From the IMG/VR virus record IMGVR_UViG_2852079565_000004, positions 32,001-96,000 of that record: a stretch of DNA of 64,000 nt. The stretch is one strand, 5' to 3'. Each line of letters starts with the position of its first letter. The stretch's first letter is position 1. The notes below the pieces were generated by a model, which saw nothing but the letters and a program-made list of their open reading frames with translations, was not told where the DNA came from and did no database searches. The position numbers and the translations under genes are program-made. Source of the stretch: a virus. Taxonomy: Duplodnaviria; Caudoviricetes. Positions 5,822 to 33,459 of the stretch are shown piece by piece.

Positions 5822-6210
5822 ATTTGGCCTCCCCCTGTAACTACGGAAAATGCCCTGCCATTTGTATTTAAATATTTACCCCAGTGTGCTTTTCGGATGA
5901 TTTCAGCTTGTTCGATAGTAAAGCTCGCTTCACGCAAGCCACCCTTGTGACGTCGAACCATAAAGCCTTTTGCGTATAATGATTGGCAAATTGGGCAATA
6001 ATCCACGGTATCCATAAATCCAGCGGGGCCAGAAAAAAAGATATTGCTCTGCCATGTTGCACACTCACGACACACTGGAGCATCGCAGGTATGATTTTTC
6101 CTTAGCGTTATCATATTGCCGTTTTCATCCTCATCGGCATCAAAACCAAGAACAAAATCACACAGCAAGGTTGCTTTACCACCACAGAACATGCATTTAT
6201 TGCTAGCCAT
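5806..6210 (-). CDS. Cys-rich zinc-binding phage protein
   Basis: Multiple CxxC motifs; overlaps neighbours in the operon. Confidence 0.7.
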   Translation of the reverse strand: MASNKCMFCGGKATLLCDFVLGFDADEDENGNMITLRKNHTCDAPVCRECATWQSNIFFSGPAGFMDTVDYCPICQSLYAKGFMVRRHKGGLREASFTIEQAEIIRKAHWGKYLNTNGRAFSVVTGGGQICLDL

Positions 6211-6385
6211 TCGTCACCACCTTATTCCAAATTGCTACTGCTGATGGCTTATCATTTACTGCAGGGCCTTTCGCCCCACAGCTATGACAATAAACATAAA
6301 ACCAAGTGCGGTATTCGAGGGTTTGAATGTGCAGATCCTCGCTGCCACATTTACACTGGTGAATTTCTGGCATTTTGTTTTTCAC
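6203..6385 (-). CDS. Lar-family restriction alleviation protein
   Basis: CKCG...VYCHSCGAKGP...AVAIWN. Confidence 0.8.
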   Translation of the reverse strand: MKNKMPEIHQCKCGSEDLHIQTLEYRTWFYVYCHSCGAKGPAVNDKPSAVAIWNKVVTNG

Positions 6386-6705
6386 TGCCTAACCCCCGCC
6401 AGCAATTCATCAAATTTCTGAACTAACGTGGATAACTTTGTCTCAGTAATAAAACTCGCTGAGTCGTTGTGGGAGCGAAACTTGCCCTCTTTTAGCATTT
6501 GCTCGCTATCCTCAGATACACGATAAAGTCCTTTTTCTACCTGATAAATCAAACCATAATTCAGCAATGACTTGATTATCGCTGTTGCGCCAGAGTGTTT
6601 TTTCATATTGAACTCGCTGAACAAATCATCACGACCAAAGGTTCTACCCTTAAAATGGGTAGTAAACTCCATATAACGACGCTTCTGTGAAGAATTCCCT
6701 ATCAT
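6382..6705 (-). CDS. Phage hypothetical protein (winged-helix-like)
   Basis: Coupled overlaps with both neighbours; C-terminal FDELLAGVR. Confidence 0.7.
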   Translation of the reverse strand: MIGNSSQKRRYMEFTTHFKGRTFGRDDLFSEFNMKKHSGATAIIKSLLNYGLIYQVEKGLYRVSEDSEQMLKEGKFRSHNDSASFITETKLSTLVQKFDELLAGVRQ

Positions 6706-8471
6706 GCTGCCACCCCCATTTTTTTAGCTAACCATTGCGCTTGCTCTATAAACGCCTTACCGCGCTGTTCCAGTTCTTCTCTGCTGATGTAATCAAATGC
6801 TTTTCCATTCCATGTTTTATCGAATACAACAATTGCCCCAGCAAAGAATGCGCCAGTTGGTTTTTGTTTTTCATCAGCGGGGATAAACCACTTCGGAACG
6901 TCAAAACCAATACGCCCACGGATAAAACAGATGTGATCTGCATTTTCTGGCCACCACACTTCACTCGTTGCCGCTTTCAATAAAAAGACATAACGGCCAC
7001 CAAGTTCCCGCATCGCTGAAGCATGAGACATAATGTGACGAACGCCAGTGATTGCCTGTTTTTCATGATATGAACTGCGTGAGTACGGAGGGTTACCAAA
7101 GGCAACACCGCCAATTTCTTTTAACTTCGCTGACCAATCTTGCGTGAGTGCGTTATCTTCAGCTGTATAGAAATGAGGAGCCTTACTATTTTCACCATCG
7201 GTGAATAGGTCTAGTGTGAAAGGTCCATAAATTGAATTAATGCCACATACGAGGTTTTCGGGGGATTGCCACTGATCCCCAATTTCATTTAATTTATGGG
7301 TAGGCTGTAACTTCAACGAATTGAGCTTTTTAACGTAATCACTTTGCGGAATGGCCTGCGCTACAGCATTGCAAATACGCTCACCAATCCAACGCATGAC
7401 CGGCACAGCCATTGAATTACCAAGAGCGCGATAGCGGTGACCATCTGGGCAATCATCAATAGATTTATTATTGAAAGGTACTTTGGTGTGATTATCGGGA
7501 AAGCCCTGTAGGCGTTCGCATTCAATTGGGGTTAATCTGCGTACGATATTGTTAATACTAACGCCATGGCGATCTACTTTTGTTAATGTGTATGAAATAT
7601 CGCTTTCGTTGTAGCCATTTCCATTACCGCCATTTTCAGGTTTACGGCCTATTGTATTACCCGCTAATGCAACAACATGAAAATCGCCAGTGAATGCTTC
7701 TTGGTTGCCTAGCCAGTGTTTAGCACCGCAATTTGCTAAGATGGTTCCTGTTGTTTGATTGCCGCTTGCAAGGCATTCTCCAACATCGCTGGTAATTGCT
7801 TCCCTCTGCGCTCTGCTCGTCTCAATATCCCCTCGCATGCCTGCTTGCTCAAATAATATTTCTGAGACACTGATGTCTTTTCTAGCAGTTGCGACAACGA
7901 AGACACGACGACGTCGTTGGGGCACTCCGAAATATTGAGCGTCGAGGATCCGCCAAGCGATAGTTCTTTGTGGTCCAGACACAACACCAGCGTTTGACCA
8001 TTTTTCCCCTGTTGGCTTAAGTTCTTCACTTTCCCCGGCAAGTCCAGCAAGAAAACATCCAAAGGCATTGTCTTTGCTGCTGAGAACGCCGGGGACATTT
8101 TCCCAGACGATGATTGCTGGCTCTTTGCCTTCGTTTTTTCTGATTTCATCAATACAGTCCGCTAATTCAACAAATGATAAAGTTAGTTGCCCACGCTCAT
8201 CACTTAAACCACCACGTAAACCCGCTACGCTAAACGCTTGACATGGAGTGCCACCTACCAACACATCTGGCGCGGTTACTTCACCAACTTTCAATTTGTC
8301 AGCAATCGTAGTCATGTCGCCTAGATTTTTAACTTCTGGCCAGTGATGATTTAATACTGCGCAAGGGAATGGCTCAATTTTACTAAACCACTCAGGTTTC
8401 ATGTTTAATGGTTCCCAAGCAACGCTTGCAGCTTCAATGCCAGAGCACACAGATCCGTAAGTTAATGACAT
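6702..8471 (-). CDS. Fused C5-cytosine methyltransferase + phage N6-adenine (Dam-type) methyltransferase
   Basis: N-part SVCSGI, GGTPCQ, ENV, PQRRRR, RLQGFP, LGNSMAV; C-part DQWQSP, LDLF, NPPYS, RGRIGF. Confidence 0.9.
   Translation of the reverse strand: MSLTYGSVCSGIEAASVAWEPLNMKPEWFSKIEPFPCAVLNHHWPEVKNLGDMTTIADKLKVGEVTAPDVLVGGTPCQAFSVAGLRGGLSDERGQLTLSFVELADCIDEIRKNEGKEPAIIVWENVPGVLSSKDNAFGCFLAGLAGESEELKPTGEKWSNAGVVSGPQRTIAWRILDAQYFGVPQRRRRVFVVATARKDISVSEILFEQAGMRGDIETSRAQREAITSDVGECLASGNQTTGTILANCGAKHWLGNQEAFTGDFHVVALAGNTIGRKPENGGNGNGYNESDISYTLTKVDRHGVSINNIVRRLTPIECERLQGFPDNHTKVPFNNKSIDDCPDGHRYRALGNSMAVPVMRWIGERICNAVAQAIPQSDYVKKLNSLKLQPTHKLNEIGDQWQSPENLVCGINSIYGPFTLDLFTDGENSKAPHFYTAEDNALTQDWSAKLKEIGGVAFGNPPYSRSSYHEKQAITGVRHIMSHASAMRELGGRYVFLLKAATSEVWWPENADHICFIRGRIGFDVPKWFIPADEKQKPTGAFFAGAIVVFDKTWNGKAFDYISREELEQRGKAFIEQAQWLAKKMGVAA
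7736..8152 (-). CDS. Nested out-of-frame ORF, M.EcoHK31I beta-subunit-like
   Basis: 138-aa same-strand alternative frame with SLSQLLE...KYYLS...GILRRAERRGKQLP. Confidence 0.6.
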   Translation of the reverse strand: MMKSEKTKAKSQQSSSGKMSPAFSAAKTMPLDVFLLDLPGKVKNLSQQGKNGQTLVLCLDHKELSLGGSSTLNISECPNDVVVSSLSQLLEKTSVSQKYYLSKQACEGILRRAERRGKQLPAMLENALQAAIKQQEPS

Positions 8472-8719
8472 TAGATAGCACCCCGCTGCTGGTGGGATTT
8501 AACATACTCGCGCATATGCTTATAACGCTGCTGAACTTGAAAATGGTCAGCATGATGGTTTAAATGGCGAAACTTCCTGCAGGTAACTAAATCACGACGG
8601 GATTGATTCCATCTGTTGCGGAGCTTGCGAATAGTGCGCCATTTACGAAGCTGCTTGAACATGGCAATCATGCCTAGCACGTCAACGCCATAAATTGTTT
8701 TAGTTTCACTACGCATCAT
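8471..8719 (-). CDS. Basic phage hypothetical protein
   Basis: ATGA overlap with the rep stop codon; GAGG RBS. Confidence 0.65.
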   Translation of the reverse strand: MMRSETKTIYGVDVLGMIAMFKQLRKWRTIRKLRNRWNQSRRDLVTCRKFRHLNHHADHFQVQQRYKHMREYVKSHQQRGAI

Positions 8720-9807
8720 GCTGTCACCTCTTTCGCTGCTTGCTCTGATGCCTGCTTCCAAATATCTATCCACGTTTTGCGCGCCTGAAAGTCTGTCATG
8801 CTACGGACGCCACGCTTACCAGCCAGATCAGCGGCGATTTCTTCAATTCTATTTTGAGGAGCTGAGCGCGAACTCACTATTCGGGTGTATGCACCATCAC
8901 GCTCCGCTGCATCGACATTAACCCTTAATCCACCAGCCAACTGAACATGAGCTTTTTCCCACTGTTCACGTAGAGATCTTGGACACAACACAGCTTGGTG
9001 CCAAAAATCATCCAAAGTGATTAACTTATAGAGTCGGCAAATATCTTTGTGGTCGCGCCCATCAATCTCACGCATTAAACGCACTTCGTTAACCCACTCC
9101 ACAATAGTGATATCATCTGGCTTACCTAGTTTTCGTTCGCTAAAGAGCCATTTTTTACGGTCAAATAGATACTCTGCGCAGATTAAATCTTCTTGGGTTC
9201 CCCATTTTTTGAAATTAGCGCTGTAAATCACCGCTTCTGGATAACGATTTAAAAAATCAATTTTTTTCGGGTCGCTTAATTCGTTAGAATTCTGCGACGA
9301 AAGGTTTTTATTCTCTGTAGTATTCTCTGTAGTAGTCTTTGGTAATGGTTGGGTCATGTTGCTACAATGCATTTGGGCATCATGATCCGATGCATTTGTG
9401 CAATCTGTATCATTGCAATTGGTCATATTGCTATTTTCCATTTGGTCATTTTGACCAAATGCATTTGTCATATGTTCAGACTCAAGTTTTGAAACAACTG
9501 AGTAGTCGACGCTATACCACTTTGTTTGGTCTCTTGGGTCTTTGTTGTAATTAGCTGAAAATAGCAAGCCCTTGGATTCCAAGCTGTTTAAGGCTCTTTT
9601 TATCGTTGCTTCACTCCAAAAAGGAAAGTGTTCTTTCTTCCAGTTGGCTACACTGTTGTAAACCCACTGTTTTTCATCATAGATATTCTTTGATATCTCT
9701 TGGTAATAATGGATTTGCTGCAATACCAGCGCCTCATTAAGCCCGATAATGCAGGATAACGTCTTAGATACCAGCAACGGCGGCTCATTGATTAAAAATC
9801 GACTCAT
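8716..9807 (-). CDS. Phage replication initiator (lambda O-like)
   Basis: N-terminal wHTH (IGLNEALVLQQIHY, FPFWSEATIKR), internal iteron linker, RLMREIDGR...DDFW C-domain. Confidence 0.85.
   Translation of the reverse strand: MSRFLINEPPLLVSKTLSCIIGLNEALVLQQIHYYQEISKNIYDEKQWVYNSVANWKKEHFPFWSEATIKRALNSLESKGLLFSANYNKDPRDQTKWYSVDYSVVSKLESEHMTNAFGQNDQMENSNMTNCNDTDCTNASDHDAQMHCSNMTQPLPKTTTENTTENKNLSSQNSNELSDPKKIDFLNRYPEAVIYSANFKKWGTQEDLICAEYLFDRKKWLFSERKLGKPDDITIVEWVNEVRLMREIDGRDHKDICRLYKLITLDDFWHQAVLCPRSLREQWEKAHVQLAGGLRVNVDAAERDGAYTRIVSSRSAPQNRIEEIAADLAGKRGVRSMTDFQARKTWIDIWKQASEQAAKEVTA
9350..9471 (-). repeat. Origin iterons inside the rep gene (five to six 22-23-bp repeats)
   Basis: TGACAAATGCA / TGACCAAATGGA / TGACCAATTGCA / TGCACAAATGCA / TGCCCAAATGCA series. 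Confidence 0.7.
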
Positions 9808-9986
9808 TCCGTCACCCTTGTGAATTCGGCTTTAAATTTGTACAAAGGGGCGAAGCATTCATGTTCATAACCGTCACGCAAGAATATGACCCATTGCTTG
9901 ACTCGGTCATAACGTATGACACGAACACGAATACCACGCTTATCCAGATAAATACGATTGAGATTATTGGCATCTTCATTGGACAT
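9804..9986 (-). CDS. DUF4222-like protein
   Basis: YLDKRGIRVRVIRYD..VIFLRDGYEHECFAP..F..EF. Confidence 0.75.
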   Translation of the reverse strand: MSNEDANNLNRIYLDKRGIRVRVIRYDRVKQWVIFLRDGYEHECFAPLYKFKAEFTRVTE

Positions 9987-10173
9987 CACCTTTCCCCTTG
10001 CAATTAAAAAGAACTCGGACATTTAAATTGCCCACAGCCCATTCAACATATCTGCGGTTTACGGGGATCCATTCGTTCTGTACCATAAGTTCATATTGCA
10101 ATTGCGAGGTTCCAGCAGAACTCGCTGAGCATCTCAGTTGCACTAAACCTGAATTATTTGATAGACTCCTCAA
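9976..10173 (-). CDS. Small phage hypothetical protein
   Basis: Fills the gap between YmfL-like and DUF4222-like genes; TTG start. Confidence 0.4.
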   Translation of the reverse strand: MRSLSNNSGLVQLRCSASSAGTSQLQYELMVQNEWIPVNRRYVEWAVGNLNVRVLFNCKGKGDVQ

Positions 10174-31938: not shown

Positions 31939-33459
31939 TTAACTCAAACGATACCAACCCATAAGCATAATATACGCATTCGTCACTGTTAGAGCCGTGC
32001 CAGAGCCTAAATTCTCAGTTTCTCCCGAGAAAGTATGCGTGTGCACTCCATTATTCGATGTTTCGCCTACCCAAGATTTAGATGCATCAAATTTCCATCC
32101 AGAGTTAGCATCTTGGTTATATGCATTACTATAACTCCAGCTACCACCTGCCCCTCCCCACGAAAATGCACCAGATGCACCTTTTGTTCGACTATCATGA
32201 ATACTATTGAGTGCGCCTGTTATATTCATTGTTCCACGGTTGTGGGTGTGACCGCCATTTGAACTTGTCGTACCAGAGTATTTTAATGACACTGCTGGGA
32301 GGTGACCTTTACCAATGGTCACTGAATCCGAACCACCGGTTGTTAACACATTCGCACCACTTGCAGCAGCTAAACGAATGGTTTTATTTTCACCGATGTA
32401 CTGCCATTTCGTACCAGGGAATAAGGTATTGGGGTTCTTATTTTGTGCAAACCACACAACAATACCAATAGGGTAAATGGTATTAAGATTGACCGCATTT
32501 TGTAATGCATCGGTGACAGCCTTCTGGCTCATCACGTTCGTTGTTGATCCACCCGTTGATTGGGCAACACTGCTCGTATTGAGCTTTGCATTCAACCCGT
32601 TATTAAGTGCTGTGTTTGTTGCATAATCCCCCGACGGTTGATAACTCCCCTTAGCTTGGTACCGTGTATCCCCTTCCACTTTGGTGTAGCTCTCGCCTTT
32701 GAGTGCGTAATTCCCTGCTGGGGCATAATTGCCCTTAGGTTGATAGTTGGTATCAGACTCCGCTTTTGAATAACTATAACCTGCAGCTTGATAGCTGCCT
32801 TTAGGTTGATACTTACCATCGGTTTCAGCCTTGGTATAACTATCTCCTTTTAAGGCATAGTCCCCTGAGGGCTGATAACTGCCTTTCGGCTGATATCGCC
32901 CATCGCCCTCTACTTTAGTGTAGCTTTCACCTTTAAGTGCGTAATTGCCTGCGGGGGCATAGTTGCCTTTGGGTTGATACTTGGTGTCAGATTCGGCTTT
33001 AGAATAGCTATAACCTGCCGCTTGGTAATTGCCTAACGGCTGGAAGCGCTTGTCAGATTCTGTTTTGGTATAAACATTGATATCACCCGCACTTAAATCC
33101 GCTTTAAGTTCTTGCCATGCTGTGCCAGCTACTGGCTCAACATTGTTATTTTCAATCTTCGACTGCCACGTTTTGTTTTTATGATAAACAATTGCGCGGA
33201 TCGGGTATGGTTTACCTTCTGTCGCCCATTTAGGAAAACCAAAGCTTTGCAACTCGCCTATCGCTTCTGTGATATCGTGAAACATGCCGTTCATCTTTTC
33301 ACGTTCGATATCTTTGGCCGCAGGATCAATTTGTTGGTCACGCTCATAATCGTAGCTATAGCCTTGCGTGTAAGAAACCGCGCCATCAGCTTGCACATCA
33401 TCGGGAATAGGGGTTCTATCCCCTTGTGTTGCAAAGGGGATTTTAAAGATTTTTGTCAT
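31939..33459 (-). CDS. Tail fibre protein with internal repeats
   Basis: FKIPFATQGD N-terminus, YQPKG repeats, IYPIG...HTH...WYR C-terminus. Confidence 0.88.
   Translation of the reverse strand: MTKIFKIPFATQGDRTPIPDDVQADGAVSYTQGYSYDYERDQQIDPAAKDIEREKMNGMFHDITEAIGELQSFGFPKWATEGKPYPIRAIVYHKNKTWQSKIENNNVEPVAGTAWQELKADLSAGDINVYTKTESDKRFQPLGNYQAAGYSYSKAESDTKYQPKGNYAPAGNYALKGESYTKVEGDGRYQPKGSYQPSGDYALKGDSYTKAETDGKYQPKGSYQAAGYSYSKAESDTNYQPKGNYAPAGNYALKGESYTKVEGDTRYQAKGSYQPSGDYATNTALNNGLNAKLNTSSVAQSTGGSTTNVMSQKAVTDALQNAVNLNTIYPIGIVVWFAQNKNPNTLFPGTKWQYIGENKTIRLAAASGANVLTTGGSDSVTIGKGHLPAVSLKYSGTTSSNGGHTHNRGTMNITGALNSIHDSRTKGASGAFSWGGAGGSWSYSNAYNQDANSGWKFDASKSWVGETSNNGVHTHTFSGETENLGSGTALTVTNAYIMLMGWYRLS

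Follow-up and report, generated by a model that had tools for sequence, protein, structure and literature searches.

The 64,000-nucleotide stretch of viral DNA analysed here (the window; positions 32,001 to 96,000 of IMG/VR record IMGVR_UViG_2852079565_000004) carries an orphan prophage DNA methyltransferase gene that probably encodes two polypeptides in two reading frames of the same DNA. The longer chain, alpha, is a fusion of a cytosine-C5 (C5) methyltransferase with a phage Dam-type N6-adenine methyltransferase and occupies positions 6702 to 8471 of the minus strand (589 amino acids). The shorter chain, beta, is encoded at 7736 to 8152 in the +1 frame of the same strand, wholly inside the alpha gene. 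Comparison of homologous genes demonstrates, at the level of their sequences, that both frames are under selection and that the arrangement is universal in the clade, and we regard it as highly probable that the nested gene is real and selected. Its product is probably a trans-acting piece of the 5-methylcytosine (m5C) methyltransferase, a reading to which we assign a probability of roughly 0.6 and which is derived from the position of beta, from its fusion to other parts of the enzyme in relatives and from the precedent of M.EcoHK31I. Translation of beta would start inside the alpha gene, and beta would bind to alpha and be required for activity.

The alpha open reading frame (ORF) was identified from the ORF list and from Pfam and NCBIfam matches. 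Its C5 part comprises residues 1-375 (7347..8471, minus strand, as for all features described below) and matches PF00145 (C5 DNA methylase) over residues 7-366 with an expect value (E) of 1e-41 and 143.9 bits (cut-off 22) and TIGR00675 (dcm) with 138 bits (cut-off 100.65). On this one chain are found motif I (8430-8453), motif IV with PCQ (8229-8252), motif VI with ENV (8085-8108), motif VIII with QRRRR (7890-7919), motif IX (RRLTPIECERLQGFPD; 7494-7541) and motif X with GNS (7398-7421); together with a score over the curated cut-off, they identify a member of the C5 family. The N6-adenine methyltransferase domain (residues 389-572; 6756..7307) matches PF05869 (Dam) over residues 392-572 (E 5e-39) and the phage N6A methyltransferase profile TIGR01712 with 188.7 bits (cut-off 97.05), covering positions 2-163 of 165. 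This practically full-length match and the catalytic motif GNPPY at residues 459-463 (NPPY at 7083-7097) place it among the phage N6-adenine methyltransferases, so that the 589-residue fusion with a complete C5 motif set, proposed in an original prediction from the DNA letters, is real. The best PHROG match of residues 376-589 (6702-7346) is phrog_33262, named 'phosphoadenosine phosphosulfate reductase' (E 1e-130), a name that looks wrong for this domain or derived from fused members. When alpha was folded alone with AlphaFold2 (AF2), the catalytic core of the C5 part was predicted with a local distance difference test score (pLDDT) above 90, and nearly all residues between 210 and 305 had a pLDDT below 50. 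These residues cover the variable region and most of a dual-coded stretch at residues ~195-246 (7734..7889), which joins motif VIII to the target-recognition region and is open, weakly constrained and mostly of low confidence, with the pLDDT dropping under 50 from residue 210 onwards.

The nested frame consists of 138 codons counted from a TTG at 8152, overlaps alpha motifs VI-VIII and ends with a stop codon at 7736-7738; the coordinates given for it in the original prediction, like the peptide SLSQLLE..KYYLS..GILRRAERRGKQLP, agree with the translation. The probable start is the ATG at 8147-8149, which would yield a protein of 137 residues, and further in-frame ATG codons occur at 8096-8098 and 8066-8068. 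Beta can be divided into an N-terminal leader (residues 2-83; 7904..8149) that lies over motifs VI-VIII of alpha and a conserved C-terminal module (residues 84-138; 7739..7903) of the form SLSQLLE..KYYLS..ACEGILRRAERRGKQLP..L..AL, which is delimited by tblastn, a hidden Markov model (HMM), AF2 and the substitution pattern. Comparison of homologues indicates that the first ~45 residues of the leader are merely kept free of stops and that residues ~45-83 have a sequence conservation of their own. An AF2 model of beta built with 56 homologues assigns low confidence to residues 1-80 (pLDDT 32-64 in the leader) and predicts two confident helices within residues ~100-133 (pLDDT ~95 over residues 97-133), such that the module would form a helical hairpin rich in Arg and Lys. 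The consensus of the module is L..LE..KYYLS..ACxGILRRAxxRGKxLP..L..AL, with the helices predicted at residues ~102-133. Two Cys residues are nearly invariant in the module columns (VCSLSQ and ACxGIL); the first is replaced by Ser in the window and in loci L037 and L084 and by Thr in L086. In the ESM Atlas, beta found just viral 'hypothetical protein' clusters of 144-163 residues.

An open +1 frame is by itself unremarkable in a single gene, since synonymous shuffling of the window gene alone leaves this frame open in about one quarter of cases; its significance therefore rests on the comparison with homologues. Of 87 loci, 81 have no stop in the +1 frame across alpha residues 108-188, compared with 20.3 expected from synonymous main-frame shuffles; in a control region of the same loci the number is 2, compared with 2.1 expected. 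In a bacterial replicate all 74 loci are open (30.3 expected; control region 9 versus 7.6). The question raised by the original prediction of whether stops break the alternative frame in homologues is thereby answered in its favour. Conversely, when the nested frame is shuffled synonymously, frame 0 would be expected to remain open over the module in 36.6 loci but is open in 82 of 82. In the control region, entropy at codon positions 1, 2 and 3 of the main frame amounts to 0.74/0.51/1.61, and the third-position value falls to 1.02 at residues 150-183; a test for such reduced synonymous variation had been suggested with the original prediction. Within the module, the nested frame has values of 0.77/0.72/1.20, with its third position the most variable, which makes codon position 1 of the main frame the most variable one there. 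Isolated substitutions were classified by the ratio of those silent in the main frame only to those silent in the nested frame only. This ratio, 26:1 in the control region, rises to 76:1 over residues 125-150, drops to 2.6:1 over residues 151-183 and is reversed to 1:5 in the module. Upstream of motif VIII, at residues 151-186, amino-acid identity in the +1 frame is 0.53 as opposed to 0.30 after shuffling. Thus both frames are held open and each is under purifying selection across diverged homologues, as is to be expected of overlapping genes.

Because entropy, substitution ratios and stop tests differ on the two sides of motif VIII, the dominant frame switches there inside the gene, from the methyltransferase frame before the motif to the nested frame after it, with the other frame mainly held open. 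The view of the module as an overprinted newcomer, implicit in the original prediction of an overprinted accessory subunit, has to be given up, for past motif VIII it is the nested frame that is under dominant purifying selection and the main frame that is a low-confidence linker; an overprinted origin is suggested rather for this linker and for the N-terminal leader of beta. The same data bear on the notion that the nested frame is untranslated and owes its conservation to constraints on the main frame, the mRNA or the DNA, or to its being the relic of an ancestral frame. The N-terminal ~45 nested codons, with almost no amino-acid-level selection of their own (the ratio of 76:1), would fit such a by-product, and the conserved alpha motifs ENV and DNAF account for part of the N-terminal similarity. 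What makes an untranslated frame very improbable is the module, in which substitutions silent in the nested frame outnumber those silent in the main frame fivefold and the third nested codon position varies most, together with the avoidance of stops far beyond expectation in two independent sets of loci; moreover, over a protein divergence of 44-80% across phyla, decay of a relic would be expected.

The 5' end of the nested frame has features of a translation start. The open +1 frame begins directly past a +1-frame stop, ~20 codons upstream of ENV, and at least 64 of the 87 loci have an ATG at codon position -19 from ENV; in the window and its closest relative the ATG is shifted by 3 codons, to position -16 from ENV. 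A +1-frame ATG within the 16-codon stretch of alpha residues 97-112 is present in 83 of 87 loci (60.6 expected) and is preceded at a distance of 5-17 nucleotides by a GGAG, GAGG or AGGA core in 28 loci (3.5 expected). The ATG that arises from the ENV codons was also considered as a conserved start and is ruled out by its Asn codon, which is AAC in 71 of 87 loci. These observations favour internal initiation over a programmed +1 ribosomal frameshift near motif VIII, by which a product made of motifs I-VIII and the module would be synthesized beside the full-length chain. Such a product would restore the canonical order of motif VIII and module, and the +1 relation directly past motif VIII is indeed invariant. 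A shift at this place would not need the avoidance of stops and the conservation of amino acids that extend 35-80 codons upstream of motif VIII, nor does it predict that start codons preceded by a Shine-Dalgarno-like core should be enriched where the open frame begins. In addition, the junction, as far as can be judged from reading it and without a formal scan, contains neither a slippery heptamer nor a shift site next to a stop nor a long homopolymer. A programmed shift is accordingly given little credence. Still less can be said for a single chain generated by two frameshifts, +1 past motif VIII and back past the module, even though it would recreate a canonical single-chain enzyme: it does not require frame 0 to be open over the module, as it is in all 82 loci compared, the nested frame reaches a stop 10-25 codons past the module in nearly all loci, and shift sites are not evident. 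We consider the double shift barely credible and retain internal initiation as the probable mode of beta synthesis.

The nested arrangement is found far beyond the window. A tblastn search with the last 61 codons of the nested ORF yielded matches in 138 phage records (55-70% identity, E down to 6e-16), all of them beneath annotated C5 methyltransferases; in Vibrio phage CP-T1, Providencia phage PSTRCR_117lys and Enterobacter phage CobraSix, the matching segment is found in the +1 frame inside the annotated gene. The same +1-frame module is present in dmt of the P1-like phage SJ46, in Streptococcus phage Javan422 and in Akkermansia phage Chantilly. The 80 viral contigs retrieved with the main protein gave 83 viral or phage loci. 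In all 83, motifs I-VIII and motifs IX-X are read in one uninterrupted frame 0, and the module is shifted to +1 with respect to motifs I-VIII. An independent set of 80 loci from bacterial genomes was collected with the module alone by an alignment-based scan. Here again the module is displaced by +1 from motifs I-VIII in all 80 loci, 74 of which have the layout of the window, 2 a run-on layout described below and 1 an odd layout, the remaining 3 being incomplete. This set includes Proteobacteria, Verrucomicrobiota, Chloroflexi, Bacteroidota, Actinomycetota and Saccharibacteria, with sources such as Enterobacterales, Pseudomonas, Burkholderiales, Rhizobiales, Aeromonas, Kiritimatiellia, Anaerolineae and Chitinophagaceae. 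Among complete loci, frame 0 is uninterrupted in 83 of the 84 from viruses or phages (the window included) and in 74 of the 77 from bacterial genomes. A search of 1.84 billion proteins with an HMM of the module retrieved 4,422 representative clusters (E <= 0.001; clustering at the 50% identity level). None of the 267 called proteins that hold the module has motif VIII upstream of it in the same frame. A single-chain gene of the ancestral type, with motif VIII and module in one frame, was not found among the called proteins and loci examined; called proteins of ~250 and 452 residues that seemed to be single chains change frame before motif VIII and lack the motif, and are frameshifted calls. 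A megablast search of the gene against phage and E. coli genome collections gave no close DNA relative; the nearest relative is a Providencia phage gene with 67% protein identity.

In about 3% of complete loci (5 of 160), the layout differs in that the nested frame, instead of stopping past the module, extends over the variable region and motifs IX-X. In these run-on relatives frame 0 stops 50-150 codons past motif VIII, and the module forms the N-terminal part of a long beta chain; examples are L084 (1841-2698 and 2295-3797), L085, L086, L116 and L132, and the proteins P0058, P0081, P0100, P0147 and P0181. The two genes overlap by ~400 nucleotides and are called as separate overlapping proteins in an NCBI record of a metagenome-assembled genome (MAG). 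As judged from the frames, the run-on and nested layouts are interconverted by a single indel past the module. In a layout tree the run-on forms are scattered among the nested ones, with 24 changes for 30 run-on tips; this tree of 126 columns has low resolution, too low to separate frequent real switching from sporadic indels or assembly errors, either of which may account for the changes. Two loci deviate further. In L112, from a Bosea MAG, the C-terminal part is in a third frame relative to both the N-terminal part and the module, and in L116 both frames are open for ~600 codons; these may represent additional layouts or assembly errors. We read the run-on relatives as indicating that the module is functionally part of the methyltransferase and that the enzyme tolerates its C-terminal half on either chain, which fits the fragment complementation known for C5 methyltransferases (PMC3404938).

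The run-on relatives also help to weigh the idea that the nested gene is translated into a protein that is not a subunit of the methyltransferase, such as a small regulator of the methyltransferase or of lytic genes, or an anti-defence protein that acts independently and has only its DNA in common with the enzyme. That the nested frame is under selection does not reveal what the protein does, a small protein of no named family leaves room for other functions, and a helical hairpin rich in Arg and Lys could bind nucleic acid. In the run-on relatives, however, the module continues in frame into the variable region and motifs IX-X, and among the proteins and loci examined it was never found outside a C5 methyltransferase gene. 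It also sits exactly where canonical enzymes have an L..LL....KY.L element: hhalign places the module on residues 308-338 of E. coli Dcm (TLAQLLDPM.VEAKYILTP; L.QLL....KYIL......Y..YAKK), the position expected past motif VIII. A separate function of beta is therefore considered unlikely, and the preferred reading remains that of a methyltransferase piece supplied in trans.

Several findings weigh against this reading. The match between module and Dcm, which supports the statement of the original prediction that the segment usually follows motif VIII in cis, is weak (E 0.044, probability 1.2%). Searches of Pfam, NCBIfam, PHROGs, the PDB (with the single sequence and with a profile) and Foldseek gave nothing usable for naming beta. 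The support for translation of the nested frame consists of sequence signs, a start codon and a Shine-Dalgarno-like core, and the ATG at 8149 of the window has no GGAG, GAGG or AGGA core 5-17 nucleotides upstream. Relatedness among the loci inflates the counts somewhat, although synonymous sites are saturated at the 44-82% protein identity at which the loci were compared. In 5 of 87 loci (L009, L048, L049, L050 and L070) the module is degenerate or truncated while the main frame is intact, and in L045 the leader of the nested ORF is lost, again with an intact main frame. In lineages with a degenerate nested ORF, beta may be dispensable, or those genes may be decaying.

In the model that we prefer, alpha would be translated in frame 0 as a chain with motifs I-VIII, a linker of ~55 residues, the variable target-recognition region, motifs IX-X and the Dam-type N6-methyladenine (m6A) domain. 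Beta, of ~137 residues, would be initiated internally at the conserved +1-frame ATG ~16-19 codons upstream of ENV, run over motifs VI-VIII and end ~55 codons past motif VIII. Its C-terminal helical module would be the counterpart of the element that follows motif VIII in cis in E. coli Dcm, always displaced by +1 in this clade. Most likely, beta binds alpha non-covalently and thereby completes the small, DNA-recognition domain in trans. Methylation to m5C would then depend on beta, and the Dam domain would work alone; phage DNA methylated at both C and A would escape host restriction. A broader proposal is put forward tentatively, as one that we hold at somewhat less than even odds: a cross-phylum clade of phage and prophage C5 methyltransferases, of at least 4,400 clusters at 50% identity and including P1-like Dmt, would consist of obligate two-chain enzymes whose second chain is encoded by a never-annotated +1-frame gene, with M.EcoHK31I as one characterised member and with single indels by which the target-recognition half changes chains and the enzyme stays active.

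The methyltransferase gene belongs to the replication/nin region, lambdoid in type, of a 119-kb provirus record. Its neighbours are a replication-type gene on one side and a RusA resolvase gene on the other, and no restriction enzyme is encoded next to it. Downstream are a Lar-like restriction-alleviation ORF of 60 amino acids (6203-6385), two genes from the methyltransferase, which matches PF14354 just under the threshold (26.6 versus 28.6 bits), and the RusA resolvase (PF05866; 5435-5821). A 100-residue ORF with no family match (8471-8773) ends exactly at the start of the methyltransferase ORF, and an ORF of 363 residues (8716-9807), with no Pfam match, occupies the position of replication protein O in the annotation of a related Providencia phage. 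The 100-residue ORF overlaps the 3' end of the latter by 58 nucleotides in another frame. A DUF4222 protein is encoded at 9804-10022. The lack of an adjacent restriction enzyme and the Lar-like gene fit the anti-restriction role that had been suggested for this orphan enzyme, and the dual methyltransferase and the Lar-like ORF may form a small anti-restriction cluster.

If the nested gene encodes a subunit, a large share of the orphan cytosine methyltransferases of phages are heteromers. Neither Pfam, NCBIfam and PHROGs nor the phage annotations checked include the second gene. This has a practical side, as codon optimisation would destroy beta and could silently kill m5C activity in expressed, engineered or recoded genes. 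As a long same-strand overlap in bacteria and phages, the gene pair is unusually clean and deeply conserved, and it is one in which the dominant frame switches within a single gene.

A literature search brought up no paper that describes a conserved nested gene in phage C5 methyltransferases, and a full-text search for the peptide word GILRRA found none. Two-chain C5 methyltransferases are treated in the literature consulted as two isolated exceptions, M.AquI, which is split in the variable region, and M.EcoHK31I with its nested beta (PMC3404938). M.EcoHK31I (YGGCCR, from E. coli HK31; Lee, Kam & Shaw 1995) has a beta chain encoded in another frame wholly inside alpha, and both chains are needed (PMC2836561, PMC3404938). 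The window shares this layout, with beta on the same strand as alpha and in a different frame. The M.EcoHK31I beta chain of ~23 kDa is reported to carry motif IX, which its alpha chain lacks (PMC2836561, PMC3404938), whereas the beta chain of the window, of ~15 kDa, carries the module that follows motif VIII, and motif IX belongs to alpha, where the original prediction had placed it (beta ends at 7739, before the motif is reached). Furthermore, M.EcoHK31I is part of a restriction-modification system, and the prophage gene of the window is an orphan joined to a Dam domain. Some tens of residues at the N terminus of M.EcoHK31I beta are partly dispensable, and translation can start at Met 17 and Met 26 (PMC2836561). 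In the beta chain of the window, the ENV and DNAF codons of alpha create Met 18 and Met 28, numbered from the ATG; because the internal Met positions agree, we suspect that the two beta chains have their start in common and that the one of M.EcoHK31I is a longer, run-on representative of the clade.

M.AquI (CYCGRG; Karreman & de Waard 1990) is a C5 methyltransferase split into alpha and beta (PMC3404938). The run-on relatives resemble it in having motifs I-VIII on alpha and the rest, including motifs IX-X, on beta. In the window, by contrast, the main chain is continuous from motif I to motif X and just the module is on the second chain, and the two genes do not abut but overlap by ~400 nucleotides in different frames. 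E. coli Dcm, a single-chain PF00145 enzyme, has the same catalytic motif set as alpha but carries the element after motif VIII in cis, in the frame of that motif, an arrangement seen in no clade gene among the 267 proteins and 80 bacterial loci. Phage P1 Dmt represents a kind of bifunctional DNA methyltransferase that modifies both adenine and cytosine. The window enzyme resembles it in combining C5 and N6-adenine domains on one phage polypeptide with no restriction partner. Domain order and the type of the adenine methyltransferase domain vary among fusions of the Dmt type, and in none of those compared is a nested gene annotated. The fusion of a C5 with a Dam-type domain is thus of a known kind, that of P1 Dmt, and it is the nested gene that is notable, for its breadth and for having been overlooked.

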